Counted from the stretch's first letter, positions 13,746 through 62,959 are shown. The stretch is 64,000 nucleotides of DNA from Dudresnaya verticillata (GCA_977862235.1 OZ374560.1:2480001-2544000), one strand, 5' to 3'. Made by a program: numbers and translations. The notes: generated by a model not told the origin, from the letters alone.

Positions 13746-13830
13746 CGCGCTGCATGTTTGCACTGGTTGTCATGGTGAGGGTAGTACGGAGTGGTTATGT
13801 GCAGGTCGTGTCTGGTGGCGTACTGCAATG

Positions 13831-30721: not shown

Positions 30722-30722
30722 G

Positions 30723-42062: not shown

Positions 42063-42608
42063 CTTGGTGCCACGGGGTGAACAGGTCTCCTATCCAGCCA
42101 CAATGGCTATTCTTGGCTATTTGGCTATCGTGCACGTGACGGCCCGGCCGTAGGAAGAGGTGCACGGGTGGCGACAGGGTACTGCGGGTCCCGCTACTGC
42201 GATGTGCACAGACCGCCGCAACGGCAGGGGGATGCGAAACCTGGATTGGTCGTAGCCGGGCGCAAGGCGCGGACGATCAGCTGAAGATGGTGGTGCGAAG
42301 TGGGGATGTGCACCGGGTACTGTAGCGGAAGCCGCTGTGAAGTCGCTGAAGTATGCAGCCGGTTCGGGCTTTCCGCGCAAAAGCGCAAACTGGTCGTCGG
42401 AATAGTCAAACGGTCGCCGTCGAGACTGGAACGGCGAAATCAGTGATTTGTCACTACTGCGAACGGGTCCACAACGGCTGCCAGTGGCGGAGGTTACAAG
42501 TGAGCCGTCGGCCCAATACACCACTGGGATTTCAAGCTCGCCCAAGACAGGGCCAATAGAAACAGCCTTGCAGGCTTCGCGGGTCTCTCAGCCTTAACGA
42601 GGGGACCG

Positions 42609-43258
42609 TGTGGAAGAATGAGCCGCAGCAGGAGTGCTGGCGCACTGTAAGTCATTTGTGCGCATCAAGGTGTAAGACGCCCACGCGCATCAAGCTGTAA
42701 GGCGCGCGCAAGCACCGTGCGCTATACGAGCGATGGGCCTCGCTGGCGTCCCGGCTGGCACCAAACCTGATGGAAAATTGCCATTGGGTAATTAGTTGTG
42801 GCCGCTCACGCGGCCTGACGTGGTACTACCAATAATCCGTATTGATAACTGACAACAGTAAACAGTATAATTAGATTAATAATGACAGTTAGAATAGCTT
42901 AGAATAGCTCATAGGAGGTAAGAGAATTTTCAGCTCTGTATACTTAATAGGCCCCTGAGTAGCAGGGGTCTCCTGAATAGAACCTACGGTGGGTTTCGCG
43001 TCTTTACCCTGTTTCTGGAATTCACGGAATTACCGTAACCTCCCTTTCAGGTTTTTTACGAGCCTTGCCTCCACACGACGGTTGCTCTGTGCGAGCTGGG
43101 TGGCGCCGCCCCTTTTCCCCCTTTTCCCTTAGGCTCTGTGCCTTTCAAAGTCTCTACGAACCTTTTCCCGAGCTACCCAAGCTAGTGTGTTGTACACCGT
43201 CAGGACAGCTGTCCTTGCCGGTTGGCGGGTTTCTGCCTTGACGGGCCATACTACTACA
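42609..43258 (+). repeat. 3' LTR of the family A element
   Basis: Direct repeat of 30079-30721, followed by TSD CTATT. Confidence 0.95.
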
Positions 43259-44560
43259 CTATTCCGGCGCCCACAAGTAGGGCTTGACAGCCGAAAAGTC
43301 TATCAGCCCGAAAGGGGGTCTAAGTTAGTCTGTGATTATAGATACAAGGGTTAGCAATGTCATTACAAGTCAAAAGTGGGAATGCATTCCAGTTAGGGGA
43401 CTTGGCGGCGGATGCGCTGGTGCGCCCGCCGAGGTCCCGGCTGCACTGTCGATACCCTGAGCGTAGAGGATCTCCTCGTCCGTGAGTAGGAGCGCAGCGG
43501 CGCGTCATAAATCAACCAATACGCGGTGTCCAACTGGCGTCATTACAAGGCCACGTGTATGCCACGTGTATAGCTGTAAGTCCACATGTACACCTATAAG
43601 TCCACGTGTACAGCGATGAAAGGACAGCTGTCCTGATTAAGGGACAGCCTGTCCCGCGAAAAGAAGTGCGCTTCTGTAAGCCCTCCTGCTGACAGCGTCC
43701 ATACTGCCACACTGTGAAATGAAATTCAGGGACGTCCTCCCCAGCCTTTGAAAACATTTTCGAGGACAGAATGGCTGAGAAAGTAATTTTACAGGCGACA
43801 TGCCTGGCAAATGTAGTATGCGGGTTCTTCGTTTTGCATTGGTCACGCTGCGTGACCACGATGCAGAGTACTGCTGTAATGCACTTTGATCATGGCGCGC
43901 GCGTGCCGGTGGCGGCTGTGCGCGCGCCTTCGCCAGCCATCTAGGCACCTCTCGTCAGTGAGCGGAGAGGGGGGGGGGGGCCGGTCCATTTCGTAAAATG
44001 CTTTTTCGAATACTTCTAGGCCACACGTCCCGAAAGACCACCCGCCATTGCGCGCTGCTAAGGCCGCCGAACCAAGTATGATAAATGCTGTACGTGCCTA
44101 ATGTTTCGTCCCCTCCGAATTCCAGTATTGTGGCTGTCCTTGCGACTCGGCTGGAGAAGTGTGCAAGCAGATGAAGTCATACAGCTTCCAGTGACCCGCT
44201 TTGTTGCGCCCCGCAGGCGAGTCTGTGACTGAGAATAATCTGAGCTTTGTGACCACCAACGGCGGTGTCGACATCACAACCGATATTCAGAAAAACCGCG
44301 GAGAACTCACAGACTCGTACGCACCCGACCCGGGCGCACTACCCTTGGTGGATACTGGCGTGAACGGCGCGAGCCCACAAGCGTTTTCTGCTTCACAAGA
44401 ACTTTCCAAGTACGAAACAGCAACGGTCTGTTCCCCGTCAACCGCCGCCCAAACTCCGGCTTTTGAGTCGTTTCCACTATCGTCAAGCTCGCCAACTGCC
44501 GATTCATCACAAGACCAAATCCAGTTGCTTCTTTCTGTTGGCATTTTTTGCCTTCACACG

Positions 44561-47500
44561 ATGGTGGACTCTGTGATTTCTCTCGTCGAGACCACTATCA
44601 AGGTTGTTCAGCACATTCGTAATAGTCTTGAAGCTCGCAAACAAAACGCAACATCCTTCGTGACGATAGCCAATGGCATTCAACGTATTCGCGTGGCTTA
44701 TCAAGACTTTCGCAACAACCACCACCTCTCCGCCATCCACGACGACATCAGCAGCCACATTAGAGCAGAGTTGGAAATGGTCCAGCGCCATTTGAAGGCA
44801 CTTTCGCAGCAGGTAGACAAACGAAAGCCTTTACGCTCGTTGCTAGGCGGCATCGAAGCTCGTGAGGCGATCATAAAGGTACAATCCCTTGTGACAGGGC
44901 TAGAAAGACACTTGGATGCTTGTCGGCTCATGGTGAAACACTTTCAGATCCATGACTCCCGCCTCAGTGAAATATATGAACTGTTGCACAAGCATGTCAT
45001 CAAAGACGTTCCGGGCTCTTCCTCTGCGGGAGACATGACGGCACAAGATGAGGTGGTCCTAATCGATGCCACTTCTGCGCGACTTCAAGGAACAGATCCG
45101 AGCAGCCCGAGTAGTCCCAGTCAGACCTCGCCCCACTCCCCAGGCCCGACAATGAGTATACAATCTGAACAGCTTGATAAGGAGGAGGAGGACGAGATCC
45201 AATTCATATCATCGCTGCCCATGGCGATGAAGTTGATAGCGAAAAGCGATGTCCCGGAAGATGTGAAACGGAAGCTACAGCAGAAGATAGACGACTTCCA
45301 GACTCGGTGGGAGTTGAAGTTTGACGACTTGGTGTTTGAGAAAGGCAGAAGGGGAGGATGGGTCGAGTTGGGTGAAGGCGGTTTCAGCAGGGTGTACAAA
45401 GCGAAGCTCCGCCAAGGTGAAACATTCCTGGAAGTGGCAGTCAAAGAGCTAAAGGTAAAGAAGCCGGAACTGGAGAAGTTCAAGCCAAAGTTTTTGCGTG
45501 AGGTGCACGGCCTGATTCAGTACCGGCATCGCTGTATCTTGGAGGCACATGGGGCCATCTGGGCGAAGAGCGATGAGACAGAAGACGGTCACAACCCGAT
45601 GATTGTTCTAGAACGCATGACCTGCAGCCTCCACGAAGCGATTCAAGAATGCTGGGCAGCGGTGGAGGACATGGCTGTGAGAAAGGGTATCGCGCTGGAT
45701 GTGGCTGCTGCGCTCGCACATCTGCACGAGAAGAGCGTTGTTCACAGGGACGTGAAGCCTGAAAACGTGTTGTTGCGTGTTAGGGACGGTGAGGTTGTGA
45801 GGCCTGCCAAGCTGTGCGACTTTGGCGTATCGCGAGAAGTGCAGGTGACAAAGCAGATGGAAACGTATACGCTGAGGAGTAGTAGAGGAGCTGCGTCAGG
45901 GACGGTTGTTTTCATGCCACCAGAGGTGCTCAAGGACCAAAGAAAGGCACCGACGCGTCCGTCGTGGGATGTGTGGAGCTTTGGACTACTTTTATGTTTC
46001 CTGGGGGGTGGGGCGACGTCCTTTTCGGAACTGGATTTCATTAACGCCCTGGGTCTAGCAAGAGAAGATCAGCTTGGAGCAGTCGCACGAGGGTGGGCGG
46101 ACTCCATTGGGGATGAGGCGATGAGGACGGCTGCGTTGCGTTGTTTACGGTCGAAGTGGAAGGAGCGTTGCACTATGGCTGATGTGGTGGCGATTATTTC
46201 GCAGGGTATACCAGGGGTCGGGAATGATGCTCCTAGTGACGCTGAATCAGCCATGGCAGATGTGGTGGGGACGATCTCGCAGGATGTACCAGAGCTCAGG
46301 GTTGATACTCCGAGTGACGCAGAATTTGCCATGGCGGATGTGGTGGGGATAGTCTCGCGGAATGTACCAGGGGTCGGGGTTGATGCTCCGAGTGACACGG
46401 AATTTGCCAGCCTTCTTCTCGACCCACGATGGATGACCATAGATAGCAGTCCTTTGGACATCTCTGGGTGGAAGGAGAATGTGAATGAGTTGCGGTGGGC
46501 GTGCTTGACAAATGGGTTGGTTGGTGAAGAAGATTTCGATGCGGGCATGAAGTTGCTGCGGGCAGCAGCGCGAGAGAGCTGGCCGTTCATTTTTCGAAAC
46601 CCGAGGGAGCTGATGTTCCAGATGCAGTCGCGGTTGGTGGACTCATGCGATGAGGCATGGCTCGTGCGGCGGTACCTTGAGACGGCCAGCAAGGTGTCCC
46701 CCACACCTCGAGTTCGATCATTAACTCGGTGCTGGAACATTCCTGGTGGTCGACAAGAGATGGAAATCCCATGTGCGGATAGTGTAGACTGCTTCGCTGT
46801 GACAGGGGATGAAGGAAAAGTTGTGGCAGGAATTGGATACAAAGTAGTGCTCATCGACTTGGAAAGCAGTGTTGTCATCCGCGAGTACGTCGGCCACGAC
46901 AGTACGGTGGATTGCGTGGCGGTGACGCCAGACGGGCGGCACGTCGTGTCCGGGTCGCGGGACGAGACGTTGCGGGTGTGGGAGTTGGGGAGCGGCAAGC
47001 CCGTGGGGGAGCCGTTGCGCGGTCACACGAATTGGGTGGAGTGCGTGGCGGTGACGCCAGACGGGCGGCACGTCGTGTCCGGGTCGTGGGACGAGACGTT
47101 GCGGGTGTGGGAGTTGGGGAGCGGCAAGCCCGTGGGGGAGCCGCTGCGCGGTCACACGCGTAAGGTCGTGTGCGTGGCGGTGACGCCAGACGGGCGGCAC
47201 GTCGTGTCCGGGTCGCGGGACGAGACGTTGCGGGTGTGGGAGTTGGGGAGCGGCAAGCCCGTGGGGGAGCCGTTGCGCGGTCACACGAATTGGGTGGAGT
47301 GCGTGGCGGTGACGCCAGACGGGCGGCACGTCGTGTCCGGGTCGTGGGACGAGACGTTGCGGGTGTGGGAGTTGGGGAGCGGCAAGCCCGTGGGGGAGCC
47401 GTTGCGCGGTCACACGGATGGGGTGCGGTGCGTGGCAGTGACGCCAGACGGGCGGCACGTCGTGTCCGGGTCGTGGGACAAGACGTTGCGGGTGTGGGAG

Positions 47501-48418
47501 TTGGGGAGCGGCAAGCCCGTGGGGGAGCCGTTGCGCGGTCACACGCGTTGGGTGTGGTGCGTGGCGGTGACGCCAGACGGGCGGCACGTCGTGTCCGGGT
47601 CGTGGGACAAGACGTTGCGGGTGTGGGAGTTGGGGAGCGGCAAGCCCGTGGGGGAGCCGTTGCGCGGCCACGAGAATAGGGTAAATTGCGTGGCGGTGAC
47701 GCCAGACGGGCGGCACGTCGTGTCCGGGTCGCGGGACGAGACGTTGCGGGTGTGGGAGTTGGGGAGCGGCAAGCCCGTGGGGGAGCCGTTGCGCGGTCAC
47801 ACGAGTTCGATGCACTGCGTGGCGGTGACCCCAGACGGGCGGCACGTCGTGTCCGGGTCGCGGGACAAGACGTTGCGGGTGTGGGAGTTGGGGAGCGGCA
47901 AGCCCGTGGGGGAGCCGTTGCGCGGTCACACGGATTGGGTGCGGTGCGTGGCGGTGACGCCAGACGGGCGGCACGTCGTGTCCGGGTCGGGGGACAAGAC
48001 GTTGCGGGTGTGGGAGTTGGGGAGCGGCAAGCCCGTGGGCGAACCGAAAGCGTTTTCGCCATCTGTTGCGAGAATTGGATGTTTTGGGGCGAGTACTGTG
48101 AAGGCTCGTGATTGGAATGGGAATGAGCGTTACTTTGAGGTGAGTGGAAATGGTCTGCGGGAGATTGATGCGGCTGTTGGAAGAGTTCGTGAGAGTGAAG
48201 TGCTGCGCGGGAGTGGAAGCCATCGGAGCGGGTCTGCAGCGGAGGCTGTCGTACGGGTCTCGGGCCGGTCAGTGCGCCTCGGGCAGGACGGGCCGATTCT
48301 CGCGACCCTTCCGGCAGCTTTGGCCGAGCCTGGGACGTGGGACTACAATGCTGCGGAAGGTCGAGTGGTCGTCGGGCTCCAAGACGGACAGGTGTTGGTG
48401 TTGGAGGTGGAGACGTAA
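44561..48418 (+). CDS. Paralogue 1: MLKL/HeLo-like four-helix bundle + Ser/Thr (TKL-like) kinase + APAF-1-like helical segment + 9 near-identical WD40 repeats (1285 aa)
   Basis: ATG (MVDSV) is conserved in all three copies; GEGGFSRVY, VAVKEL, HRDVKPEN, DFG, MPPE and DVWSFG; 43-aa GH...WE repeats. Confidence 0.92.
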   Translation: MVDSVISLVETTIKVVQHIRNSLEARKQNATSFVTIANGIQRIRVAYQDFRNNHHLSAIHDDISSHIRAELEMVQRHLKALSQQVDKRKPLRSLLGGIEAREAIIKVQSLVTGLERHLDACRLMVKHFQIHDSRLSEIYELLHKHVIKDVPGSSSAGDMTAQDEVVLIDATSARLQGTDPSSPSSPSQTSPHSPGPTMSIQSEQLDKEEEDEIQFISSLPMAMKLIAKSDVPEDVKRKLQQKIDDFQTRWELKFDDLVFEKGRRGGWVELGEGGFSRVYKAKLRQGETFLEVAVKELKVKKPELEKFKPKFLREVHGLIQYRHRCILEAHGAIWAKSDETEDGHNPMIVLERMTCSLHEAIQECWAAVEDMAVRKGIALDVAAALAHLHEKSVVHRDVKPENVLLRVRDGEVVRPAKLCDFGVSREVQVTKQMETYTLRSSRGAASGTVVFMPPEVLKDQRKAPTRPSWDVWSFGLLLCFLGGGATSFSELDFINALGLAREDQLGAVARGWADSIGDEAMRTAALRCLRSKWKERCTMADVVAIISQGIPGVGNDAPSDAESAMADVVGTISQDVPELRVDTPSDAEFAMADVVGIVSRNVPGVGVDAPSDTEFASLLLDPRWMTIDSSPLDISGWKENVNELRWACLTNGLVGEEDFDAGMKLLRAAARESWPFIFRNPRELMFQMQSRLVDSCDEAWLVRRYLETASKVSPTPRVRSLTRCWNIPGGRQEMEIPCADSVDCFAVTGDEGKVVAGIGYKVVLIDLESSVVIREYVGHDSTVDCVAVTPDGRHVVSGSRDETLRVWELGSGKPVGEPLRGHTNWVECVAVTPDGRHVVSGSWDETLRVWELGSGKPVGEPLRGHTRKVVCVAVTPDGRHVVSGSRDETLRVWELGSGKPVGEPLRGHTNWVECVAVTPDGRHVVSGSWDETLRVWELGSGKPVGEPLRGHTDGVRCVAVTPDGRHVVSGSWDKTLRVWELGSGKPVGEPLRGHTRWVWCVAVTPDGRHVVSGSWDKTLRVWELGSGKPVGEPLRGHENRVNCVAVTPDGRHVVSGSRDETLRVWELGSGKPVGEPLRGHTSSMHCVAVTPDGRHVVSGSRDKTLRVWELGSGKPVGEPLRGHTDWVRCVAVTPDGRHVVSGSGDKTLRVWELGSGKPVGEPKAFSPSVARIGCFGASTVKARDWNGNERYFEVSGNGLREIDAAVGRVRESEVLRGSGSHRSGSAAEAVVRVSGRSVRLGQDGPILATLPAALAEPGTWDYNAAEGRVVVGLQDGQVLVLEVET
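46175..46408 (+). repeat. 3 x 78-bp (26-aa) coding tandem repeat MADVV..PSDAE(S/F)A directly after the kinase (also at 53333-53566 and 60959-61192)
   Basis: Units start at 46175, 46253 and 46331. Confidence 0.9.
46892..48046 (+). repeat. WD40 array, 9 x 129 bp
   Basis: Invariant framework CVAVTPDGRHVVSGSxDxTLRVWELGSGKPVGEPLRGH with variable residues after GH and around SxDx. Confidence 0.97.
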
Positions 48419-51400
48419 AGGAAAGCAAAGGCGATGTCGAGTGCGGAGAAAGTGTGTTGCGCCATTGCAGAGAAGAGGAAGAAACTCAGCGACGGGGAGC
48501 GCGGCGCTCTAAGAAGTGGCAGACGATGCGTTCCGCGTTCTGCGCGCTGATTGGGCGTGCAGCGCGCGTCTGGACACGTGCGTCGTTTTGTGTGGGCCGT
48601 TGCGCGTCCCTCGTCAGAGCGCACGCGACCGCCCTTCGGCGCCACGCCTCAAGTGGGAACGGTTTAGACATTGTGACGCACAAAGGAGTTGATCCACAAC
48701 ACCGCTGCTGTTGCAGTTTCGATCAAGAGACTTGGTCTGTCGGACAACTATGCACAATGGCTTCGCTCTCGGTATGGATTGTTCATTGATGACTGGGCGA
48801 GTAGTGAGAATCGGTGCGCATTGGTCATACTCGACCAAGTCATTCACTGCCTATGGAAGGATTTGGGAAGCTGCCCACATACTGGAAACCGAATAAGCGA
48901 CCAGACGTGTTGTACACAAATGAGCTCCATTGTGTTTGATAGCATGTGGAAAGAGCGAGGACACAGCAACTAGCACACCCACAAAGTATGCAATACTACC
49001 AGTCGGCATTATATTGTGATGCTTGATTTTAATGGTTGTTTAGGGTGGTCTTGTGCGGGCGACGATGGCCCATGGGCAAGCACACCGGCAAGCTACAGTT
49101 GTTAAGGTTATTCTTGATGACATCCATTAAAAGTATCCTATGACCGGTAAAGGGGGTGAAGCTATCCTTCGGAAAGGGATTAGTTACGTGGGGACCGACT
49201 GGGTTGTGGGTGGGAAGTAGACAGGGGAAACGCGTGGCTGCAGGCGTCCCGGATAGATGAGATTGTGTCAGAGATGGCGCAGATATCAGCGGCGAGTGGT
49301 TCTGGGAGCGACAGGGCTTGGAGAGATTGGGCGAGGGGCTGGACCTTCTGTGTTGAATTGGATTGCTTTATTATGGTAAGGTTAGCACGATTCTGGGACT
49401 CATTGTAATTCTTGTCCGTGCTATATGCGCATTTAGCTTAAATGAATGACAAATAGGGAAGCGTTGAGTATATAACATGGTCTCCAATGGATCCCGACCT
49501 GCAGGCCTCTCAAAACAATGGGCTTTCCCTATCTTGGCTGCGCTTATCTCAAGACCAGTAGCACAGCTGTAGCACAGTACAGTTACCCATCGCACCCAAA
49601 GGCACGGGCAATCGCAAAGAGCTGATTTCAGAACCTCGATTCACATTGCAGTAGCAAAAGCCTTTGTCCCCAATCTGGCGTAGCTTATAAAACACCACAG
49701 TTACGAAGCCGTTAAGAAGGATTCCAAAGTTGCTTGTTTCATGCATTTGGCCGGAGTATCACAGGTGCCAGAATAAAGCGAGCAAACCATGCTTTGAATC
49801 GTAATTAACAAACAAAGCGCAACGCACAGTCGTCGGAGATTCACAGTTGCAATGCTCCCTCGGAATGTAATCGGGTCTCCGATACTGAAAATCTCGACAT
49901 CCAAGCACGGCGGGCGAGGCGGTGGCCGAAATACGTGATGTTGTTACTGTTTTGTATTTGCGTCATGAGGAGTCTCGCAACATCGCTTACTGATGCAATG
50001 TAAAGTGTTGAGTTACGTAAGTGTCGTGTGCTACGGAAGCATGGGGCGCGCAAGAGACACCGCACGTACAGGGAACAGACGCGTTTGCTTTGCTATAATG
50101 GCTCTTAACGAAGAAATTAATGGAAAATTCTATCGAATGCTCTTTATTGCGAGATGATGCCTTAGACAAAAACCCGATCATCAGACTCACTGCTGTGCCT
50201 CGGTTATCAGCAAGTAAGTGTTCAGGTCTATTCTGACCTACTGGGAGATGCGAGAGACGACCACCTCGCTGATCTTAACTCAGCTTGATCCCTCCATGGC
50301 AAGCCCAACATGCACAGGGACGCTTCTGCGCTCGATTGTATGTGTCAACCCATCTCGGATAACCCTGGAGCACACCTGGACTCCAATCTTTCTCGCAGCA
50401 GCTTCAAGATGCTTAGTCTCTAGTCCGTATGATGTTGCCTCTTGCATTTAATCGCTGCGGGAAGCATACTCTCCTGACCCGTCCAAACTCACTCGTAAAT
50501 GAATGCGTTGCATTGCTGCCAAGAGGCATAGGTTGGATAGCCGGCGTCCGCCCCGTTGTACAACACGGACAGAACGTCTTGCACACGTCAATTACAAACG
50601 CGTCAAAACAGTTACCGATTTTCCAAATTACGCTCTGCCGCCGGTCGCCGAAACGAAAGTGCGCACGCAGGTCTGTGTCTTTCGTTTCTCCGCAGCTGCC
50701 GTATGTGTGTCGAGAGCACCATGGCGCTCTCAAGGCTGCGTCAACACCAACCGCCACCCACCCGCGCCGAACGCCGTCCGTCGTCCGCACCAACATCTGC
50801 CACGCTGCTGCTCGTGGAGCTCAGCGGCGCCGCCTGTCGACAGCGCCCGCTAGCGGCGGACAAGTTGCGCGCGAAAGCCGCGCCTCCGGGACGCTTACTG
50901 TGGGAACCACAAGCATGCGCAAGAAGTGTCTGCCGCAGCGTCGGGCACAACTTGTGCCTGCCTCGCGAGAACGAGATTTGCCGGCGCGTAGTGTATTGCG
51001 CGATGGTGGACGGGGAGATGTGTGTGCATTCAACGCAGTTGGTCCGGTTGGGTACCGTATGAAGTGCTTGCGCGAGCAATTGTTTGGTGATGCCAACAGT
51101 GCAGAACCGTCCCTGGCAATGTCCCACCGTCAAGCGCAGAACGCCAATGGCTGACTGATTCTGCTGTGCTTGTTGTCGCTCAAGGGCTGCTTCCGCACTT
51201 ATGTACTGTACAACAAGTTTGCCCGTTTGTGCTGATTCGGAGCAGTTCCGACCAATCCCGACAACCCTTTCGACCGCATTTCTTGGCTGTCCTTGCGACT
51301 CGGCGGGAGAAGTGTGCAAGCAGATGAAGTCATACAGCTTCCACTGACCCGCTTTGTTGCCCCCCGCAGGCGAGTCTGTGACTGAGAATACATCTGAGCT

Positions 51401-51715
51401 GTGTGACCACCAACGGCGGTGTCGACATCACAACCGATTATCAGAAAAACCGCGGAGAACTCACAGACTCGTACGCACCCGACCCGGGCGCAATACCCTT
51501 GGTGGATACTGGCGTGAACGACGCGAGCCCACAAGCGTTTTCTGCTTCACAAGAACTTTCCAAGTACGAAACAGCAACGGTCTGTTCCCCGTCAACCGCC
51601 GCCCAAACTCCGGCTTTTGAGTCGTTTCCATTATCACCAAGCTCCCCAACTGCCCGATCGAGTACAAGACCAAATTCCGTTGCTTCTTTCTGTTGACTTT
51701 TTTTGCCTTCACACG

Positions 51716-54700
51716 ATGGTGGACTCTGTGGTTTCTCTCCTCGAGACCAGTATCAAGGTTGTTCAGCACATTCGTAATAGTCTTGAAGCTCGCAAACAAA
51801 ACGCAACATCCTTCGTGACGATAGCCGATGGCATTGAACGTATTCGCTTGGGTTATCAAGACTTTCGCAAGAACCACTACCTCTCCGCCATCCATGACGA
51901 TGTCAGCAGGCACATCAGCGCAGAGTTGGAAATGGTTCAGCGCCTTTTGGAGGGACTTTCGCAGCAGATAGACAATCGAAGGCCTTTCCGCTCGTTGCTA
52001 GGCAGCATCGAAGCTCGTGAGGCGATCATACAGGTAAAATCCTTTGTGACAGGGCTAGAAAGACACTTGGATGCTTGTCGGCTCATGGTGAAACACTTTC
52101 AGATCCATGACTCCCGCCTCAGTGAAATATATGAACTGTTGCGCAAGCATGTCATCAAAGACGTTCCGAGCTCTTCCTCTGCGGGAGGGGTTACGGTACA
52201 AGAAGAGGTGACGGTAATCGACGCTACCTCTGCGCGACTTCAAGGAACAAATCCAAGCAGCTCGAGTAGTCCCAGTCAGACCTCGCCCCACTCCCCAGGC
52301 CCGACAATGAGTATACAATCTGAACAGCTTGATAAGGAGGAGGAGGACGAGATCCAGTTCATATCATCGCTGCCCATGGCGATGAAGTTGATAGCGAAAA
52401 GCGATGTCCCGGAAGATGTGAAACGGACGCTACAGCAGAAGATAGACGACTTCCAGACTCGGTGGGAGTTGAAGTTTGACGACTTGGTGTTTGAGAAAGA
52501 CAGAAGGGGGTGGGTCGAGTTGGGTGAAGGTGGTTTCAGCAGGGTGTACAAAGCGAAGCTCCGCCAAGGTGAAACATTCCTGGAAGTGGCAGTCAAAGAG
52601 CTAAAGGTAGAGGAGTCGGAACTGGAGAAGTTCAAGCCAAATTTTTTGCGTGAGATGCACGGCCTGATTCAGTACCGGCATCGTTGTATCTTGGAGGCAC
52701 ATGGGGCCATCTGGGCGAGGATCGGTGGGACTGAAGACGGTATCGTGCACAACCCGATGATTGTTCTAGAACGTATGACATGCAGCCTCCACAAAGCGAT
52801 TCAAAAGCACTGGGCAGCGGTGGAGGACATGGGTGTGAGAAAGGGTATCGCGCTGGATGTGGCTGCCGCGCTCGCTCATCTGCACGAGAAGAGCGTTGTT
52901 CACCGGGACGTGAAGCCTGAAAACGTGTTGTTGCGTGTTAGGGACGGTGAGGTTGTGAGGCCTGCCAAGCTGTGCGACTTTGGCGTATCGCGAGAAGTGC
53001 AGGTGACAAAGCAGATGGAGACGTATACGCTGAGGAGTAGTAGAGGAGCTGCGTCAGGGACGGTTGTTTTCATGCCACCAGAGGTGCTCAAGGACCAAAG
53101 AAAGGCACCGACGCGTCCGTCGTGGGATGTGTGGAGCTTTGGACTACTTTTATGTTTCCTGGGGGGTGGGGAGACGCCCTTTTCGGAACTGGATTTCATT
53201 AACGCCCCGAGTCTAGCAAGAGAGGGTCGGCTTGGAGCAGTCGCACGAGAATGGGCGGACTCCATTGGGGATGAGGCGATGAGGACGGCTGCGTTGCGTT
53301 GTTTACGGTCGAAGTGGAAGGAGCGTTGCACTATGGCTGATGTGGTGGCGATTATTTCGCAGGGTATACCAGGGGTCGGGAATGATGCTCCTAGTGACGC
53401 TGAATCAGCCATGGCAGATGTGGTGGGGACGATCTCGCAGGATGTACCAGAGCTCAGGGTTGATACTCCGAGTGACGCAGAATTTGCCATGGCGGATGTG
53501 GTGGGGATAGTCTCGCGGAATGTACCAGGGGTCGGGGTTGATGCTCCGAAAGATGTGGAATTTGCCAACGTTCTTCTTGACCCACGATGGATGACTATAG
53601 ATACCAGTCCTTTGGACATCCCTGGGTGGAAGGAGAATGTGAATGAGTTGCGGTGGGCGTGCTTGGCAAATGGGTTGGTTGGTGAAGAAGATTTCGATGC
53701 GGGCATGAAGTTGCTGCGGTCAGCAGCGCGAGAGAGCTGGCCGTTCATTTTTCGAAACCCGAGGGAGCTGATGTTCCAGATGCAGTCGCGATTGGTGGAC
53801 TCAAGCGATGAGTCATGGCTCGTACGGCGGTACCTTGAGACGGCTAGCAAGGTGTCCCCCACACCCCGAGTTCGATCATTATCTCGGTGCTGGAACATTC
53901 CTGGTGGTCGACAAGAGATGGAAATCCCATGTGCGGACATTGTAAACAGCTTGGCTGTGACAGGGGATGAAGGAAAAGTTGTGGCAGGCATTGGGAACAA
54001 AGTAGTGCTCATGGACTTGGAAAGCAGTGTTGTCATCCGCGAGTACATCGGCCACGAGAATAGGGTGAATTGCGTGGCGGTGACGCCAGACGGGCGGCAC
54101 GTCGTGTCCGGGTCGTGGGACAAGACGTTGCGGGTGTGGGAGTTGGGGAGCGGCAAGCCCGTGGGGGAGCCGTTGCGCGGTCACACGTATCGGGTGCATT
54201 GCGTGGCGGTGACGCCAGACGGGCGGCACGTCGTGTCCGGGTCATGGGACAAGACGTTGCGGGTGTGGGAGTTGGGGAGCGGCAAGGCCGTGGGGGAGCC
54301 GTTGCGCGGTCACAAGAATTTTGTGTGGTGCGTGGCGGTGACGCCAGACGGGCGGCACGTCGTGTCCGGGTCGGGGGACAAGACGTTACGGGTGTGGGAG
54401 TTGGGGAGCGGCAAGCCCGTGGGGGAGCCGTTGCGCGGTCACACGAATTGGGTGGAGTGCGTGGCGGTGACGCCAGACGGGCGGCACGTCGTGTCCGGGT
54501 CGCGGGACGAGACGTTGCGGGTGTGGGAGTTGGGGAGCGGCAAGCCCGTGGGGGAGCCGTTGCGCGGTCACACGGATGGGGTGCGGTGCGTGGCAGTGAC
54601 GCCAGACGGGCGGCACGTCGTGTCCGGGTCGTGGGACAAGACGTTGCGGGTGTGGGAGTTGGGGAGCGGCAAGCCCGTGGGGGAGCCGTTGCGCGGTCAC

Positions 54701-55705
54701 ACGCGTTGGGTGTGGTGCGTGGCGGTGACGCCAGACGGGCGGCACGTCGTGTCCGGGTCGTGGGACAAGACGTTGCGGGTGTGGGAGTTGGGGAGCGGCA
54801 AGCCCGTGGGGGAGCCGTTGCGCGGCCACGAGAATAGGGTAAATTGCGTGGCGGTGACGCCAGACGGGCGGCACGTCGTGTCCGGGTCGCGGGACGAGAC
54901 GTTGCGGGTGTGGGAGTTGGGGAGCGGCAAGCCCGTGGGGGAGCCGTTGCGCGGTCACAAGAATTTTGTGTGGTGCGTGGCGGTGACGCCAGACGGGCGG
55001 CACGTCGTGTCCGGGTCGGGGGACAAGACGTTACGGGTGTGGGAGTTGGGGAGCGGCAAGCCCGTGGGGGAGCCGTTGCGCGGTCACACGAATTTTGTGT
55101 GGTGCGTGGCGGTGACGCCAGACGGGCGGCACGTCGTGTCCGGGTCGGGGGACAAGACGTTACGGGTGTGGGAGTTGGGGAGCGGCAAGCCCGTGGGGGA
55201 GCCGTTGCGCGGTCACACGAATTGGGTGGAGTGCGTGGCGGTGACGCCAGACGGGCGGCACGTCGTGTCCGGGTCGGAAGATAAGACGTTGCGGGTGTGG
55301 GAGTTGGGGAGCGGCAAGCCCGTGGGCGAACCGAAGGCGTTTTCGTCATGGGTTGTGAGTGTTAGATGTTTTGGGGCGAGTACTGTGAAGGCTCGTGATG
55401 AGGATGGGAATGAGCGTTACTTTGAGGTTAGTGGAAATGGTCTGCGGGAGATTGAGGCGGCTGTTGGAAGAGTTCGTGAGAGTGAAGTGCTGCGCGGGAG
55501 TGGAAGCCATCGGAGCGGGTCTGCAGCGGAGGCTGTCGTACGGGTCTCGGGGCGGTCAGTGCGCCTCGGGCAGGACGGGCCGATTCTCGCGACCCTTCCG
55601 GCAGCTTTGGCCGAGCCTGGGACGTGGGACTACAATGCTGCGGAAGGTCGACTGGTCGTCGGGCTGAAAAGCGGACGTGTGTTGGTGTTGGAGGTGGAGA
55701 CGTAA
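51716..55705 (+). CDS. Paralogue 2: same architecture, 10 WD40 repeats (1329 aa)
   Basis: Intact ORF, highly similar to paralogue 1, with all kinase motifs intact. Confidence 0.92.
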   Translation: MVDSVVSLLETSIKVVQHIRNSLEARKQNATSFVTIADGIERIRLGYQDFRKNHYLSAIHDDVSRHISAELEMVQRLLEGLSQQIDNRRPFRSLLGSIEAREAIIQVKSFVTGLERHLDACRLMVKHFQIHDSRLSEIYELLRKHVIKDVPSSSSAGGVTVQEEVTVIDATSARLQGTNPSSSSSPSQTSPHSPGPTMSIQSEQLDKEEEDEIQFISSLPMAMKLIAKSDVPEDVKRTLQQKIDDFQTRWELKFDDLVFEKDRRGWVELGEGGFSRVYKAKLRQGETFLEVAVKELKVEESELEKFKPNFLREMHGLIQYRHRCILEAHGAIWARIGGTEDGIVHNPMIVLERMTCSLHKAIQKHWAAVEDMGVRKGIALDVAAALAHLHEKSVVHRDVKPENVLLRVRDGEVVRPAKLCDFGVSREVQVTKQMETYTLRSSRGAASGTVVFMPPEVLKDQRKAPTRPSWDVWSFGLLLCFLGGGETPFSELDFINAPSLAREGRLGAVAREWADSIGDEAMRTAALRCLRSKWKERCTMADVVAIISQGIPGVGNDAPSDAESAMADVVGTISQDVPELRVDTPSDAEFAMADVVGIVSRNVPGVGVDAPKDVEFANVLLDPRWMTIDTSPLDIPGWKENVNELRWACLANGLVGEEDFDAGMKLLRSAARESWPFIFRNPRELMFQMQSRLVDSSDESWLVRRYLETASKVSPTPRVRSLSRCWNIPGGRQEMEIPCADIVNSLAVTGDEGKVVAGIGNKVVLMDLESSVVIREYIGHENRVNCVAVTPDGRHVVSGSWDKTLRVWELGSGKPVGEPLRGHTYRVHCVAVTPDGRHVVSGSWDKTLRVWELGSGKAVGEPLRGHKNFVWCVAVTPDGRHVVSGSGDKTLRVWELGSGKPVGEPLRGHTNWVECVAVTPDGRHVVSGSRDETLRVWELGSGKPVGEPLRGHTDGVRCVAVTPDGRHVVSGSWDKTLRVWELGSGKPVGEPLRGHTRWVWCVAVTPDGRHVVSGSWDKTLRVWELGSGKPVGEPLRGHENRVNCVAVTPDGRHVVSGSRDETLRVWELGSGKPVGEPLRGHKNFVWCVAVTPDGRHVVSGSGDKTLRVWELGSGKPVGEPLRGHTNFVWCVAVTPDGRHVVSGSGDKTLRVWELGSGKPVGEPLRGHTNWVECVAVTPDGRHVVSGSEDKTLRVWELGSGKPVGEPKAFSSWVVSVRCFGASTVKARDEDGNERYFEVSGNGLREIEAAVGRVRESEVLRGSGSHRSGSAAEAVVRVSGRSVRLGQDGPILATLPAALAEPGTWDYNAAEGRLVVGLKSGRVLVLEVET
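54050..55333 (+). repeat. WD40 array, 10 x 129 bp
   Basis: Same framework as 46892-48046. Confidence 0.97.
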
Positions 55706-57383
55706 AGGAAAGCAAAGGCGATGTCGAGTGCGGAGAAAGTGTGTTGCGCCATTGCAGAGAAGAGGAAGAAACTCAGCGACGGGGAGCGCGGCGCTCTAAG
55801 AAGTGGCAGACGATGCGTTCCGCGTTCTGCGCGCTGATTGGGCTTGCAGCGCTTGTGTGGACACGTGCGTCGTTTTGTGTGGGTAGTTGCGCGTCCCTCG
55901 TCAGAGCGCACGCGACCGCCCTTCGGCGCCACGCCTCAAGTGGGAACGGTTTAGACATTGTGACGCACAAAGGAGTTGGTCCACAACACCGCTGCTGTTG
56001 CAGGTTGGATCAAAAGACTAGCTCTGTCTGACAACTCTGCGCAATGGCTTCGCAGCCGGTTTACTGTCCTCATGCTTCCACATACTGGAAACCGAGAAGG
56101 GCCCAGACGTGTTGCACACAGATGAGCTCCATTGCGTTTGATAGCATATGGAAAGAGCCAGGCAAGCCACAGCAACTAGCGACGCCATCTCAGACCAAGC
56201 TCAGGACTAGCCTTGTTGATCGCATAAGTGAAATCATGACGCTGAGACGTGCGCCTTATGGATCGTCACCCAACTCGTCGGTTATTCGGGTGCAACACAA
56301 CAAGGGCACACGGACCGAACATCGTCTACCCGTTTGTCCACTTGTCGCTCTTTCCGTGATTCCGCGAGACGTAAAGACGAACGTGGACGGAAAGACGCGC
56401 TTCGCGATCGGCGAGACTGTGAAATGAGGGACTAACTTGGTAAGCCGAGTGAGGAGAGAATTTCTCAGTGACACGGGAGGTGTGCCACCTCTTCTTAAGA
56501 GGTGGATTCGATTGCGCACTCAAGAAAGTTGGAGAACAACTGCTTGACGCCGTTGCAACTTGCAAGTTGCAATGAATACATCGTGTAGTTGACGCACGAC
56601 AACTACGTGGCCTAAACGTGTTATTGAAATTGACGGCATTGCGAACGAGTTGACTCCCGGAAATGAACAAACCGCTCTTGAGAGAAGATCGAAGAGCCTC
56701 TGCCGAGTGCAACCAAAAACAAGCCGCGCAGCCATTTCCATCACTTCAGAGCTGAGGTGTCTATGAATGCTTACTTTTATTTTACCTATACACGTAACTT
56801 GACCTCGTCGTTTAAAATGGAAAGGAAGTCTGAGGGTTTCTAAATGAAAAGGTTTATCAGACTCGACAAAAGAGCTGGTCAATTAAGCCATCGCTTCCAC
56901 TCTCAACTTCGCAGCGGGTCTAAACATGCCACACTTCCGCGGGGCTCTCGGCTCGGCTCATTATCCTCGACCATTTTCCATATGTCATTCACAACAACGG
57001 AGAAATTATGTTGAACAACTCCTTCCCGTATTGAAACAGTACCAGATCCCGTAGCCCATGTCTTCACAGCACACGTCGACCTTTCAGCACGCCTGTCTTT
57101 AGCTATACAACCGTGGCAGCAGTACGTACCAGAACAAAGCTATTCAAATCTACAACTCGAGTATGTATGGAAAATATGGAAGCGTTCTTAAAGTACCAAT
57201 TCATTCGTAAGAGCCTACGCAAGATAATGAAAATGTGCAGCAAGAAGCTGATAAGCGAGAACTTATTGCTCAACTACGGAGTGCCACTTCCCTTCCGAGT
57301 AGATTCTAGACAAGTACAAAAGAAGCTTAAATGATAATCCAGGATCTCGGACGACCCCTCGAAACCTATTTTCCTTTCAGAGC

Positions 57384-57424
57384 CAACAACAACAACAACA
57401 ACATCATCATCATCATCATCATCA
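57384..57424. repeat. Compound microsatellite (CAA)n(CAT)n
   Basis: caacaacaacaacaacaacatcatcatcatcatcatcatca. Confidence 0.9.
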
Positions 57425-59344
57425 GAACCGCCTGGTAACGGGAAGATAGATAAGGATGTTAGAAGTTTGTACCCGCATTGCTGGTTTTCTTTGTGGTTGC
57501 AGCGACCCATTCGTTTTTCTGCTTCTTCATACCATTTTTCCGCTCGGGTAGGACCTTATAAGATAACATGATGAAGAGATTCTTTTGCATCCGATCACGG
57601 CGTTTGGCAACATAGGGTAGGCTGGCAAGCTAGTTGCTCGACACAGTCGATGACGTGCCGCCACTGGCCAGACATATACACATATATATACTGGCCGCCG
57701 GCAACTATACGTATGTACAAGTACGTGGAGAACAACTAAACCATTCCAATCGGCTGCAATTTCAGAACTGAGTGCGGGCGTTGACTCCTTCAGAGTAACG
57801 CGATTGATTCAAACCGTTTGCATTACTGCACAGCAACGAAAAGGCCCAGTCCTTCTGCGAGACTTCTTGTGACTACCCTTCTTTATCACAGAACGAAAGG
57901 GGTAAAATCGTTCTGTCGAGAGGCCCCGCCATTCTCGAGCGTCACGCGGCACCTTGCTCAGCCAACGGCGGAACAACAAGGGAACAAAAACGGACAGAAC
58001 AAACGGCTTGTAAACGTCGTCGAGCTCTCTCATTCCCGTCAGTGCCTTGTTAAGCTCGCAAAGGGTGTGTACTGGAAAAGACCGGACTGGATGGTGCGAC
58101 GCTCGAGCTCTTTCGGAGCTGTGCAGAACTATAGCGCGGCGGAGAGAAGCGGAGGAACGCCGGTGCGACTGTGCAAGTGAGTCGAGAACAACTTAATTGT
58201 CCGCGCAGCCGGTCGGCAGCGGCAATTACAAATGCGTCAGAACAATTACCGATTTACCAAATTACGCTCTGCCGCAGCTCGGCGAAACGAAGCGGCGCAT
58301 CTCTGCATTTCGTTTCCTTCGGAGCTGCTGCGTGTGGCCTGAGCTTGCACCTTGGCGCTCAAGCTGGCGTCAACGCCTTAACCGCCAACGCCGAACGCCG
58401 TTCCTCGTCCGGACCAAAACCTTTGTATCTGCTGCGCTGCTGCTCGTGGATCTCAGCGGCGGCGCCTGTCGACATCGCCCGCTAGCGTCGGACAAGTCGT
58501 TAACATCGTGCGCAAAGCCGGAGGCTTTCTGCGGAACCACGAGCAAGCGCAAGAAGTGGCTGCCACAGCGTAGGGCACAAGTTGTGCCCGCCTCGCGAGA
58601 ACGAGTTTCGCCGGCGTGTAGTATTTTGCGCGATGGTGGACGGGGAGATGTGTGTGCAACGCAGTTGGTACAAGTATCTACCGGTGGGTTCCGTTTGAAG
58701 TGCTTGCGCGTGCAATTTGTTTGGTGATGGCAACAGAGCCGGAACGACCCCTGACAATGCCCCGTCAAGCGTGTTGCGGCAAGCCAATGGTTGACTGCTT
58801 CGTTCTTTCTGCTCTTCTTGTTGCCGCACAAGGGCTGCTTCCGCACTTGCAACAAGTTTGCCCGATTGTCCTGATTCGGAGCAATTCCGACCAATCCCGA
58901 CAACCCTTTCGACCGCAATTCTTGGCAGTCCTTGCGACTTGACGGGAGAGCTGTGCAAGCAGATGAAGTCATACAGCTGCCTTAGTGACCCGCTTTGGTG
59001 CGGGGCGAGTGGGTATCTGAGAATTCTGTGCTGTGTGGCCGCCAACGGCGGTGCCGACATCACAGCCGAATTTCAGAAGAACCGCGGACAACTCAAGACT
59101 CGAAAGCACCCGACCCGGGCACACTGCCCGTGCTAGATACTGGCGTGAACGACGCAAACCCGCAAGCGCTTTCTGGTTGAGCAAAAACGTGCAAGTACGA
59201 AACAGTAGCGGTCTGTTCCCCGTCAACCGCCGTCCAAACTCGGCTTTTGAGCCGTTTCCACTATCGCTAAGCTCATCAACTGCCCAATCGAACATAAGAC
59301 CAAATCCTGTTGCTTCTTTCTGTTGACTTTGCTACCTTCGCACG

Positions 59345-62300
59345 ATGGTGGACTCTGTGATTTCTCTCCTCGAGACCAGTATCAAGGTTGTTCAGTACAT
59401 TCGTAATAGTCTTGAAGCTCGGAAACAAAACGCAGCATCCTTCGAGACGATAGGCAAGGGCATTGAACGTATTCGGTCCGGTTATCAAGTCTTTCGCAAG
59501 AACGACTACCTCTCTGCCATCCACGACGATGTCAGCAGGCACATCAGCGCAGAGTTGGAAACAGTGCAGCGCCATTTGAAGGGGCTTGCGGAGCGGGTAG
59601 ACAAACGAAAACCTTTCCGCTCCTTGCTAGGCAGCATCGATGCTCTGGAGGCGATCATTCGAGTGGAATCCCATGTGGCGACGCTCGAAAGACACTTGGA
59701 TACTTGTGGGCTCATGGTGAAACACTTCCAGATCCAGGACACTCATCTCAGAGAAATATACCATCTTTTGCACAAGCATGTTATCAAGGACGTTCCGAGT
59801 TCTTCCTCTCCGGGAGGCGTGACGGCACAAGATGAGGTGGTCGTAATCGATGCCACTTCTGCGCGACTACGAGGAACAGGTCCGAGCAGCCCGAGTAGTC
59901 CCAGTCAGGAACCACCCCACTCTCCAGGCTCGGCAAGGAATTTGCGATCTGAACAGCTTGATAAGGAGGAGGACGATGAGATCCAATTCATATCATCGCT
60001 GCCCATGGCGATGAAGTTGATAGCGAAAAGTGATGTCCCGGAATCTGTAAGACGAGAACTACAGCAGAAGATAAAGGATTTCCAGACTCGATGGGAATTG
60101 AAGTTTGATGACCTGATGTTTGAGAAAGGTAGAAGAGGAGGATGGGTTGAGTTGGGCGAAGGTGGTTTCAGTAGGGTATACAAGGCGAAGCTCCGCCAAG
60201 GTGAAACATTCTTGGAAGTGGCAGTCAAAGAGCTGAAGGTAGAGGAGTCGGAACTGGAGAAGTTCAAGCCAAGGTTCTTGCGTGAGGTGCACGCCCTTAT
60301 TCAGTACCGGCATCGCTGTATCTTGAAGACACATGGGGCTATCTGGGCGAGGATCGATGGGACAGAAGACGGTCACAACCCGATGATTGTTCTAGAACGC
60401 ATGACATGCAGCCTCCACGAAGCGATTCAAAAGCGCTGGGCAGCTGTGGAGGACATGGGTGTGAGAAAGGGTATCGCGCTGGAGGTGGCAACTGCGCTAG
60501 CTCATCTGCACGAGAAGAGCGTTGTTCACAGGGACGTGAAGCCTGAAAACGTGTTGTTGCGTGTTAGGGACGGTGAGGTTGTGAGGCCTGCCAAGCTGTG
60601 CGACTTTGGTGTGTCACGGGAAGTGCAGGTAACGAAGCAGATGGGGACATATGCGCTGAGGAGTAGTAGAGGAACTGCGTCTGGGACGGTTGTTTACATG
60701 CCACCGGAGGTCTTCAAGGATCAAAGAAGGGCGCCGACTCGTCCGTCGTGGGATGTGTGGAGCTTTGGACTTCTTTTATGCTTCCTGGGGGGTGGGGCGA
60801 CGCCCTTTTCGGAACTGGATTTCATTAACGCTCCGAGTCTAGCAAGAGAAGATCAGCACGGAGCGGTCGCACGAGGGTGGGCGGACTCTATTGGGGATGA
60901 GGAGATGAGGACGGCAGCGCTGCGTTGTTTACGGACGCATTGGGAGGAACGTTGTACTATGGCGGATATGGTGCGGATTTTTGCACAGTATGTACCAGGG
61001 GTCGGGAATGATGCTCCTAGTGACGCTGAATCAGCCATGGCAGATGTGGTGGGGACGATCTCGCAGGATGTACCAGAGCTCACGGTTGATACTCCGAGTG
61101 ACGCAGAATTTGCCATGGCGGATGTGGTGGGGATAGTCTCGCGGAATGTACCAGGGGTCGGGGTTGATGCTCCGAAAGATGTGGAATTTGCCAACTTTCT
61201 TCTTGACCCACGATGGATGACCATAGATACCAGTCCTTTGAACATCCCTGGGTGGAAGGAGAATGTGAACGAGTTGCGCAGGGCGTGCTTGGCAAATGGG
61301 TTAGTTGGTGAAGAAGGTTTCGATGCGGGTATGAAGTTGCTGCGGTCAGCAGCGCAAGAGAGCTGGCCGTTCATTGTTCGAAACCCGAGGGAGCTGATGT
61401 TCCAGATGCAGTCGCGGTTGGTGGACTCATGCGATGAGTCATGGCTCGTGCGGCGGTACCTTGAGACGGCTAGCAAGGTGTCCCCCACACCTCGAGTTAG
61501 ATCATTGACTCGGTGCTGGAACATTCCTGGTGGTCGACAAGAGATGGAAATCCCATGTGCGGACAGTGCACGCAGCATTGCTTTAACAGCGGATGGAGGT
61601 AAAGTTGTGGCAGGCATTGGGAAGAAAGTAGTGCTCATCGACTTGGAAAGCAGTGTTGTCATCCGCGAGTACGTCGGCCACGAGGATCAGGTGCAGTGCG
61701 TGGCGGTGACCGCAGATGGGCGGCACGTCGTGTCCGGGTCGTCGGACGATACGTTGCGGGTGTGGGAGTTGGGGAGCGGCAAGCCCGTGGGGGAGCCGTG
61801 GCGCGGCCACACGGGGTGGGTGTGGTGCGTGGCGGTGAGTCCAGACGGGCGACACGTCGTGTCCGGATCTGTGGACGAGACGTTGCGGGTGTGGGAGTTG
61901 GGGAGCGGCAAGCCCGTGGGTGAGCCGTTACTCGGTCACACAAATTGGGTGTGGTGTGTGGCGGTGACGCCAGACGGGCGGCACATCGTGTCAGGTTCGG
62001 AAGACAAGACGTTGCGGGTGTGGAAGTTGGAGAGCGGCAAGCCCGTGGGGGAGCCGTTGCGCGGCCACAAGGATCATGTGCAGTGCGTGGCGGTGACCTC
62101 AGACGGGCAGCACGTCGTGTCCGGGTCGCGAGACAAGTCATTGCAGGTGTGGGAGTTGGGGAGCGGAAAGCCGGTGGGTGAGCCGTTGCGCGGTCACACG
62201 GGGTGGGTGGAGTGCGTGACGGTGAGTCCAGACGGGCGGCACGTTGTGTCCGGATCTGCGGACGAGACGTTGCGCGTGTGGGAGCTGGGGAGCGGCAAGC

Positions 62301-62959
62301 CCATGGGGGAGCCGTTGCGTGGTCACACAGATTGGGTGTGGTGCGTAGCAGTGACCCCAAATGGGCGGCACGTCTTATCCGGATCTGTGGACGAGACGTT
62401 GCGGGTGTGGGAGTTGGAGAGCGGCAAGGCTGTGGGTGAGCCGTTCCGCAGTCACATGGATTATGTGCAGTGCGTGGCAGTGAGCCCAGACGGGCGGCAC
62501 GTCATGTCCGGTTCGCGGGACAAGACGTTGCGGGTGTGGGAGTTGGGGAGCGGCAAGGCCGTGGGAGAACCGAAAGCGTTCTCGTCACCTGTTCTGAGTG
62601 TTGGATGTTTTGGGGCAAGTACTGTGAAGGCTCGTGATCAGGATGGGAATGAGCGTTACTTTGAGATGAGAGGAAATGGTCTGCGGAAGATACATGCGGC
62701 TGTTGGAAGAACTCGTGAGAGGAAAGCGCGGCGCGGGAGGACCGGGAGCGGAATGCATCGGAGTGAGTCTGAAGCGGAGGATGACATACGGGTCTCGGGC
62801 CGGTCTGTGCGCCTCGGTCAGGACGGACCGATTCTCGCAACCCTTCCGGCAGCTTTGGGCTCGTCCTGGCAACAGGCGTGGGACTACAACGCTGTAGAGG
62901 GTCGACTGGTCGTCGGGCTGCAAAGCGGACAGGTGTTGGTGTTGGAGGTGGAGACGTAA
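59345..62959 (+). CDS. Paralogue 3: same architecture, 7 more diverged WD40 repeats (1204 aa)
   Basis: Intact ORF with kinase motifs intact; the repeats carry framework substitutions. Confidence 0.92.
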   Translation: MVDSVISLLETSIKVVQYIRNSLEARKQNAASFETIGKGIERIRSGYQVFRKNDYLSAIHDDVSRHISAELETVQRHLKGLAERVDKRKPFRSLLGSIDALEAIIRVESHVATLERHLDTCGLMVKHFQIQDTHLREIYHLLHKHVIKDVPSSSSPGGVTAQDEVVVIDATSARLRGTGPSSPSSPSQEPPHSPGSARNLRSEQLDKEEDDEIQFISSLPMAMKLIAKSDVPESVRRELQQKIKDFQTRWELKFDDLMFEKGRRGGWVELGEGGFSRVYKAKLRQGETFLEVAVKELKVEESELEKFKPRFLREVHALIQYRHRCILKTHGAIWARIDGTEDGHNPMIVLERMTCSLHEAIQKRWAAVEDMGVRKGIALEVATALAHLHEKSVVHRDVKPENVLLRVRDGEVVRPAKLCDFGVSREVQVTKQMGTYALRSSRGTASGTVVYMPPEVFKDQRRAPTRPSWDVWSFGLLLCFLGGGATPFSELDFINAPSLAREDQHGAVARGWADSIGDEEMRTAALRCLRTHWEERCTMADMVRIFAQYVPGVGNDAPSDAESAMADVVGTISQDVPELTVDTPSDAEFAMADVVGIVSRNVPGVGVDAPKDVEFANFLLDPRWMTIDTSPLNIPGWKENVNELRRACLANGLVGEEGFDAGMKLLRSAAQESWPFIVRNPRELMFQMQSRLVDSCDESWLVRRYLETASKVSPTPRVRSLTRCWNIPGGRQEMEIPCADSARSIALTADGGKVVAGIGKKVVLIDLESSVVIREYVGHEDQVQCVAVTADGRHVVSGSSDDTLRVWELGSGKPVGEPWRGHTGWVWCVAVSPDGRHVVSGSVDETLRVWELGSGKPVGEPLLGHTNWVWCVAVTPDGRHIVSGSEDKTLRVWKLESGKPVGEPLRGHKDHVQCVAVTSDGQHVVSGSRDKSLQVWELGSGKPVGEPLRGHTGWVECVTVSPDGRHVVSGSADETLRVWELGSGKPMGEPLRGHTDWVWCVAVTPNGRHVLSGSVDETLRVWELESGKAVGEPFRSHMDYVQCVAVSPDGRHVMSGSRDKTLRVWELGSGKAVGEPKAFSSPVLSVGCFGASTVKARDQDGNERYFEMRGNGLRKIHAAVGRTRERKARRGRTGSGMHRSESEAEDDIRVSGRSVRLGQDGPILATLPAALGSSWQQAWDYNAVEGRLVVGLQSGQVLVLEVET
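61676..62572 (+). repeat. WD40 array, 7 x 129 bp, less homogenised
   Basis: 129-bp period with synonymous and framework changes in most units. Confidence 0.95.

Follow-up and report, generated by a model that had tools for sequence, protein, structure and literature searches.

A tandem cluster of candidate NTPase-less immune receptors joining an MLKL-type bundle, a kinase and a WD40 sensor in the red alga Dudresnaya verticillata

Introduction

The four-helix bundle of MLKL is the membrane-breaking domain of necroptosis. Here we describe three neighboring genes, paralogues A, B and C, that join such a bundle to a kinase and a WD40 array in a 64,000-nucleotide (nt) stretch of the Dudresnaya verticillata genome (OZ374560.1:2480001-2544000, analyzed as a whole and called the window below). 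Among the closest described systems are the wheat MLKL-kinases Pm13 (PMC11297308) and R3AK (bioRxiv 10.64898/2026.08.07.743466), for which immune cell death has been shown. The Pm13 paper describes MLKL-kinases as restricted to Poaceae and lists separate MLKL_NTD-WD40 fusions (PMC11297308). MLKL-family proteins with Sel1 repeats are mentioned in passing, without a function, for Glomeromycotina (PMC8778642), and fungi have HELL-kinase proteins as well as proteases fused directly to WD40, TPR or ANK repeats (PMC12881547).

Red algae are said to lack nucleotide-binding site-leucine-rich repeat (NBS-LRR) receptors, and infection induces NB-ARC+WD40 genes in Pyropia (PMC6928737). Rhodophytes have NB-ARC/WH/APAF1_C/WD40 proteins, green algae have NB-ARC-less APAF1_C/WD40 versions (PMC8891106), and WD40 and Sel1 proteins have been proposed as potential pathogen receptors in Asparagopsis (PMC12115072). 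Among the full-text matches listed, none dealt with MLKL-like proteins in red algae and none named a cell-death executioner for them; the excerpts of PMC9815663, PMC11476962 and PMC11218826 held nothing on red algae. Nor did those matches, which covered article text as distinct from the architecture supplements of the Pm13 and Ulva papers, include a protein with a bundle, a kinase, APAF1_C and WD40.

Results

The three paralogues are uninterrupted open reading frames (ORFs) on the + strand encoding 1285, 1329 and 1204 amino acids (aa), B and C being 91% and 83% identical to A (Table 1). Pfam recognizes in each a Pkinase domain (aa ~269-543, E 1e-35 to 1e-38) and WD40 repeats. The start codon is supported because M1 is nearly invariant in a 42-row family alignment, and the genes appear to be intronless as judged from the open frames alone. 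Approximately 430 nt of 5' flank and 330 nt of 3' flank are common to the copies, a shared unit that identifies them as tandem duplicates. The uninterrupted frames and their domain content bear out the three intact paralogues reported in the initial annotation, whose description of the locus was accurate but incomplete, as it missed three 26-aa repeats and an APAF1_C-like domain between the kinase and the WD40 array.

We searched PDB sequences with a profile of the N-terminus of 25 family members. With a leave-out control run, the top seven matches were all MLKL (E 1.4e-6 to 1.7e-5); single-sequence and three-sequence searches yielded nothing significant. An AlphaFold (AF2) model of the N-terminus of A has helices at residues 2-25, 31-52, 60-87 and 98-120, with a predicted local distance difference test (pLDDT) score of 85, and a fifth helix at 126-147. 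Foldseek of this bundle model gave 0 matches at E<=0.001, and comparison with the MLKL fold was compatible, not specific. The profile evidence indicates that the N-terminus is a four-helix bundle homologous to MLKL_NTD, and the modeled fold agrees with this. The MLKL pattern discerned earlier was thus upheld by the family profile and the model; the N-terminus is helical as described, except that the proposed ~140-aa unit is better divided into a bundle of aa ~1-120 and the helix at 126-147. Helix 1 has a hydrophobic moment of 0.51; most relatives, too, carry the bundle at their very N-terminus and conserve its amphipathic helix 1. By analogy, helix 126-147 and the conserved pre-kinase segment may act as a brace in oligomerization. 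Between A and B (44561-44935 versus 51716-52090) the bundle carries 23 replacement and 4 silent changes, a ratio of nonsynonymous to synonymous rates (dN/dS) of 1.8 to which no significance is attached, and it has diverged more than the kinase.

The glycine loop, VAVK, alphaC glutamate, HRD and DFG motifs are intact in all three copies, as the initial annotation had stated for most of them. In A they read G271-E-G-G-F, VAVK (K295), E314, H395-R-D397-V-K-P-E-N and D420-F-G, with MPPE and DVWSFG. Catalytic activity is therefore predicted from the motifs. Kinase dN/dS values of 0.21 (A versus C) and 0.18 (B versus C), and of 0.51 for the close copies A and B, indicate that the domain is conserved under purifying selection.

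The initial annotation had presented this architecture in isolation, overlooking a wider family of at least 37 bundle-and-kinase relatives besides A, B and C. Among 153 proteins scanned with the bundle profile (150 hits and the 3 window proteins), 40 reached the cut-off of 20 bits, 15 of which had not entered the profile build. The catalytic loop is kept in 39 of these 40 proteins and the strict three-motif pattern in 31. The family kinases form one 55-row clade against 12 outgroup kinases in a quick tree (Shimodaira-Hasegawa-like approximate likelihood ratio test [SH-aLRT] 98), and one member comes from the red alga Hildenbrandia rubra. The tail is exchangeable across the family: Sel1 repeats occur in 23 of the 42 aligned rows, HSP70 and VHL in one protein each, and several tails have no Pfam match. 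Only P0138 has the full succession of bundle, kinase, helical domain and WD40 array outside the window, to which a fragment (P0129) and a tail-only protein (P0171) can be added. In a careful tree, the window kinases group with P0138 (92/87, unstarred, long branch), adjoining three Sel1-tailed proteins (90/93), and the approximately unbiased (AU) test does not reject the view that the WD40 tail arose once (p 0.125). Several independent WD40 fusions, as read from the quick tree, were dropped on the strength of that grouping and test.

Some relatives have further unusual features. In P0137, bundle and kinase are joined to an almost complete HSP70 domain (E 1e-170) that is a candidate integrated decoy. 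A VHL beta domain occurs in P0130, and in P0142 the kinase is preceded by a cyclin domain. In P0153, an extra N-terminal region of ~270 aa precedes the helical domain, kinase and Sel1 repeats; it is TIR-like by eye, and Pfam detects no TIR in it at E<=0.05. Infection induces TIR+Pkinase genes in Pyropia (PMC6928737). P0135, P0146, P0150, P0157, P0201, P0202 and their kin form a 12-row subclade; in those of its members that were scanned, Pfam recognizes nothing in the C-terminal regions, which are possibly a further undescribed sensor domain.

In the window proteins, the kinase is followed by the three 26-aa repeats, which start in its last helix, and by ~120 residues modeled as helical (pLDDT 50-70). 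No Pfam family was found in the kinase-to-WD40 segment, which leaves no room for a NACHT domain, and none was assigned to the helical domain in the 6 of 6 members scanned. A profile of the helical segment matched a bacterial TIR-NB-ARC-WHD-APAF1_C-WD40 protein directly before its WD40 repeats. Aligned by hhalign with 13 bacterial APAF1_C segments, the segment reached a probability of 92% (E 6e-7, 109 columns), and of 74% once the two loci to which the query from the window had first led were removed; all controls (reversed, shuffled [30] and unrelated helical) stayed below 1%. The Atlas lead for APAF1_C in this domain was 0.84. Other searches with the profile of this HD2-like domain were less productive: no PDB sequence matched, a word-based search recovered its own 3 relatives only, and hmmsearch against the bacterial APAF1_C proteins gave a clear score for L013/L006 alone (16 bits; 1 of 13). 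Fold searches with the tail model (Foldseek, Apaf-1 at rank 2 with a template modeling [TM] score of 0.29; VIA-align, residues ~246-586 on 8-bladed rings with a root-mean-square deviation of ~7) do not test the helical domain or the blade split (7+7 or 8+6), because WD40 repeats dominate their matches.

The alignment covers the C-terminal two thirds of APAF1_C and its linker into WD40; A, B and C lack NB-ARC, the winged helix and the opening ~45 residues of the bacterial segments. The protein has no Walker A motif, in agreement with its earlier description as lacking a nucleoside triphosphatase (NTPase). The putative truncated APAF1_C-like domain between kinase and WD40 array makes it likely that the sensor was once the rear end of an NB-ARC/WD40 receptor and has lost the NTPase. 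That this rear half, truncated HD2 and double propeller, was grafted behind a bundle-kinase gene, replacing the Sel1 tail of the nearest relatives, is supported but more weakly.

The 129-nt tandem arrays (46906-48046, 54058-55333 and 61690-62572) comprise 9, 10 and 7 units of 43 aa, and these 26 units yield 21 signatures. Among the units of A and B, 33 of 41 shared core positions are amino-acid invariant, and 23 of the 25 extra states fall at six positions (4, 5, 6, 8, 24 and 26). Replacement diversity is 0.417 at these six codons versus 0.003 at the other 35, and synonymous diversity is 0.069 overall. The selected sites described for HET-E are four, the pairs 7/9 and 25/27 (PMC1805685). Because our six sites had been picked from the data, we tested these four previously defined ones, placed on the units by spacing and loop position. 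In A and B they hold 16 of 25 extra states (P 5e-4), and in C they hold 11 of 32 (P 4e-4). When the same spacing was slid elsewhere along the unit, the highest counts were 12 in A and B and 10 in C, which leaves a small margin in C. On the model of B, the HET-E-type sites, which belong to the top face, map to the d-a loop and start of strand a, and to the b-c turn. This model has 1+10+3 = 14 blades, and HET-E has 11+3 (PMC12222747); with the count carried over from B, the WD40 region of A has one divergent, nine homogenized and three cryptic blades. Variation at these sites supports the earlier proposal of a hypervariable, fungal-type sensor, and the homogenization described with it holds for A and B, whereas C is far less homogenized (proportion of synonymous differences [pS] 0.30 versus 0.07).

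The C-terminal end that follows the array of A is common to P0138 and P0171. Homogenization is local and recent, because the WD40 repeats of these two relatives are divergent. Units 4-7 of A and B differ at 1 of 516 nt, compared with 111 of 2325 upstream, a near-identity that may stem either from exchange in the recent past or from the assembly. Repetition within the arrays also gives rise to antisense frames (e.g., 46721-48223).

All assignable sequence upstream of A in the window is transposon-derived. A Ty3/gypsy element (30079-43258) ends 1.3 kb upstream of A; it has TG...CA long terminal repeats (LTRs) that are 96% identical (30079-30721 and 42608-43258), frames for gag, reverse transcriptase, RNase H and integrase and, in antisense, an ORF of 772 aa (39744-42062) in which Pfam recognizes nothing. 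Additional LTR copies lie at 13830-14479 and 27548-28215. Four consecutive low-GC ORFs at 17809-22319 (-) have no Pfam match at E<=0.01; we take them to resemble a fragmented copia-type polyprotein. Split AAA_11/AAA_12 helicase fragments and a reverse-transcriptase fragment at 12442-13745 (+) and 26158-27045 (+) are probably transposon debris. No partner gene or NOD-like receptor (NLR) was evident in the window or in the spacers, whose ORFs were judged by reading rather than by Pfam scan.

Table 1. Coordinates of the paralogues and their parts in the window
Feature	Coordinates	Strand	Remarks
Paralogue A	44561..48418	+	Four-helix bundle, helix, linker, pre-kinase helices, kinase, three 26-aa repeats, APAF1_C-like domain, WD40
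MLKL-type four-helix bundle of A	44561..44920	+	aa 1-120; amphipathic helix 1 at free N-terminus
Brace-like region of A	44936..45310	+	Helix aa 126-147, Ser/Pro-rich linker, family-conserved helical segment aa ~206-250 with terminal conserved Trp
Predicted Ser/Thr-type protein kinase of A	45326..46204	+	All catalytic motifs
Three 78-nt (26-aa) repeats of A	46175..46409	+	From last kinase helix on; kinase/sensor junction
Counterparts of the 26-aa repeats in the other copies	53333-53567 and 61009-61193
APAF1_C (HD2)-like helical domain of A	46394..46765	+	Truncated; aa 612-735
Homogenized WD40 array of A	46889..48049	+	9 units
Three cryptic C-terminal blades of A	48050..48415	+	Closing the propellers
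Paralogue B	51716..55705	+	Architecture as A; array 54047-55336, 10 units, 14 blades in all
Paralogue C	59345..62959	+	Architecture as A; array 61673-62575, 7 more diverged units
5' flank common to the three copies	44131..44560	+	95% with 51284-51715, 83% with 58923-59344

Discussion

We consider it probable that A, B and C are non-self or immune receptors of some kind. To the more specific proposal, that these fusions are NTPase-less single-chain non-self sensors, switched by the kinase and acting through a bundle that oligomerizes and breaches the membrane, we give an even chance. Recognition of a foreign or modified-self protein would take place at the tops of the WD40 propellers. Much as HD2 links propellers and NTPase in Apaf-1, its remnant would here keep the propellers docked on the kinase or brace. 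Ligand would cluster or open the protein, bringing kinase domains together in pairs that phosphorylate each other on the Ser/Thr-rich activation loop. Oligomerization of the helices before the kinase and after the bundle would follow, and helix 1 would enter the membrane, causing ion influx and local cell death. New specificities would come from duplication in tandem, shuffling of repeats and selection at six codons. The kinase step could also have the opposite sign, its activity holding the bundle off so that disturbance fires the receptor. In R3AK, kinase-lysine mutants are auto-active and helix 1 is needed for death (bioRxiv 10.64898/2026.08.07.743466). The built-in RIPK3 step of the initial annotation would thus be one of two signs, the kinase-dead auto-activity of R3AK showing the other.

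Weighing against membrane breaching by the bundle, death triggered by wheat Pm13 needs a functional kinase and the adjoining brace helices, and it is the brace-kinase that kills, not the bundle (PMC11297308). The receptors might accordingly signal through kinase output, as Pm13 does, or through a separate helper NLR, as Lr41 does, with the bundle serving as an auto-inhibitory lid or effector decoy. The conserved helices directly before the kinase in the family and the faster divergence of the bundle are in keeping with kinase output, and the MSP-WD40 tail of Lr41 contacts helper NLRs (bioRxiv 10.64898/2026.02.17.706082). We regard this as the main alternative but think it less likely, given that most relatives retain the bundle as their very first domain and conserve its amphipathic helix 1, and that the window contains no evident partner NLR.

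A non-immune signaling kinase with a protein-binding WD40 scaffold, its repeats homogeneous through recent duplication and their variation neutral, appears improbable. The ordinary, divergent repeats of P0138 and P0171 make homogenization recent and local, as this explanation would have it, and an Ulva APAF1_C/WD40 null mutant had no phenotype (PMC8891106). However, replacement variation at the six interface codons exceeds that at the remaining ones ~140-fold, against a background of low synonymous variation, and it falls on HET-E-predicted sites in A and B as well as in C. An MLKL-type bundle and lineage-specific tail swapping are, moreover, hallmarks of conflict genes. We also give little credence to the idea that the proteins are real but that assembly errors account in part for the triplet or its repeat numbers, or that some copies are unexpressed young pseudogenes: units 4-7 of A and B are nearly identical, short reads mis-assemble such arrays (PMC12222747) and the neighborhood is mostly transposons, but the copies differ throughout coding sequence and flanks, frames of 3.6-4.0 kb are kept with purifying selection on the kinase, and repeat exchange among paralogues is documented for fungal NWD genes (PMC1805685).

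Returning to the single-chain sensor, we tentatively suggest that red algae have their own, undescribed necroptosis-like family with plug-in sensors (Sel1, HSP70 decoy, VHL and WD40). At this locus a kinase would replace the NB-ARC switch of an Apaf-1-type NLR, the HD2-propeller part being kept, and HET-E-like repeat shuffling at six codons would serve recognition of pathogens or of self and non-self, as in coalescence or parasitism. The locus offers a concrete, testable candidate for an MLKL-homologous family with exchangeable sensors. If the proposal is true, the sensor half of an NLR can be coupled to a kinase switch in place of an NTPase, the HET-E mode of recognition diversity arose again outside fungi, and MLKL-type death extends to another eukaryotic lineage; in seaweed farming, the genes could also serve as markers of resistance to disease and of compatibility between tissues.

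Earlier presentation of the architecture as undescribed was overstated, since bundles with an active kinase in Poaceae (PMC11297308) and MLKL-Sel1 proteins in Glomeromycotina (PMC8778642) are already in print. A, B and C resemble animal MLKL in that they begin with a homologous four-helix bundle and continue with helices and a kinase fold, but MLKL is a pseudokinase, whereas their kinase motifs are intact; they also have a long C-terminal sensor, and no RHIM core was found in the protein. They share bundle, putative brace and a kinase with catalytic motifs with Pm13 and R3AK, which are described without a C-terminal repeat sensor, R3AK needing a paired NLR. As with Glomeromycotina MLKL-Sel1 and fungal HELL-kinase proteins, an MLKL-like protein with a repeat tail has undergone lineage-specific expansion. 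By description, the MLKL-Sel1 layout is the commonest architecture in the family found here, and it is by description, too, that A, B and C are set apart from it, with APAF1_C-WD40 in place of Sel1.

On the sensor side, the Podospora HNWD proteins (HET-E, HET-D and HET-R) have the same homogenized WD40 repeats, hypervariable sites, three cryptic C-terminal blades and repeat exchange among paralogues, but in A, B and C bundle and kinase stand in place of the HET domain and NACHT. Apaf-1-type NB-ARC/WH/APAF1_C/WD40 receptors of rhodophytes, cyanobacteria and other bacteria place APAF1_C directly before a double propeller, where A, B and C have their putative APAF1_C-like helices; A, B and C, unlike them, would keep only the C-terminal two thirds of APAF1_C, behind bundle and kinase, and have neither NB-ARC nor winged helix. 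The wheat tandem kinase-MSP-WD40 protein Lr41/Lr39 likewise combines kinase and WD40 tail in a receptor that has no NTPase; as described, it differs in having no bundle, in binding its effector through the kinase and in requiring a helper NLR. A, B and C are not animal MLKL, because their kinase is intact, and not HNWD or Apaf-1-type signal transduction ATPases with numerous domains (STANDs), because they have no NTPase. By analogy, they would work much as an all-in-one NLR or an MLKL-kinase receptor does.

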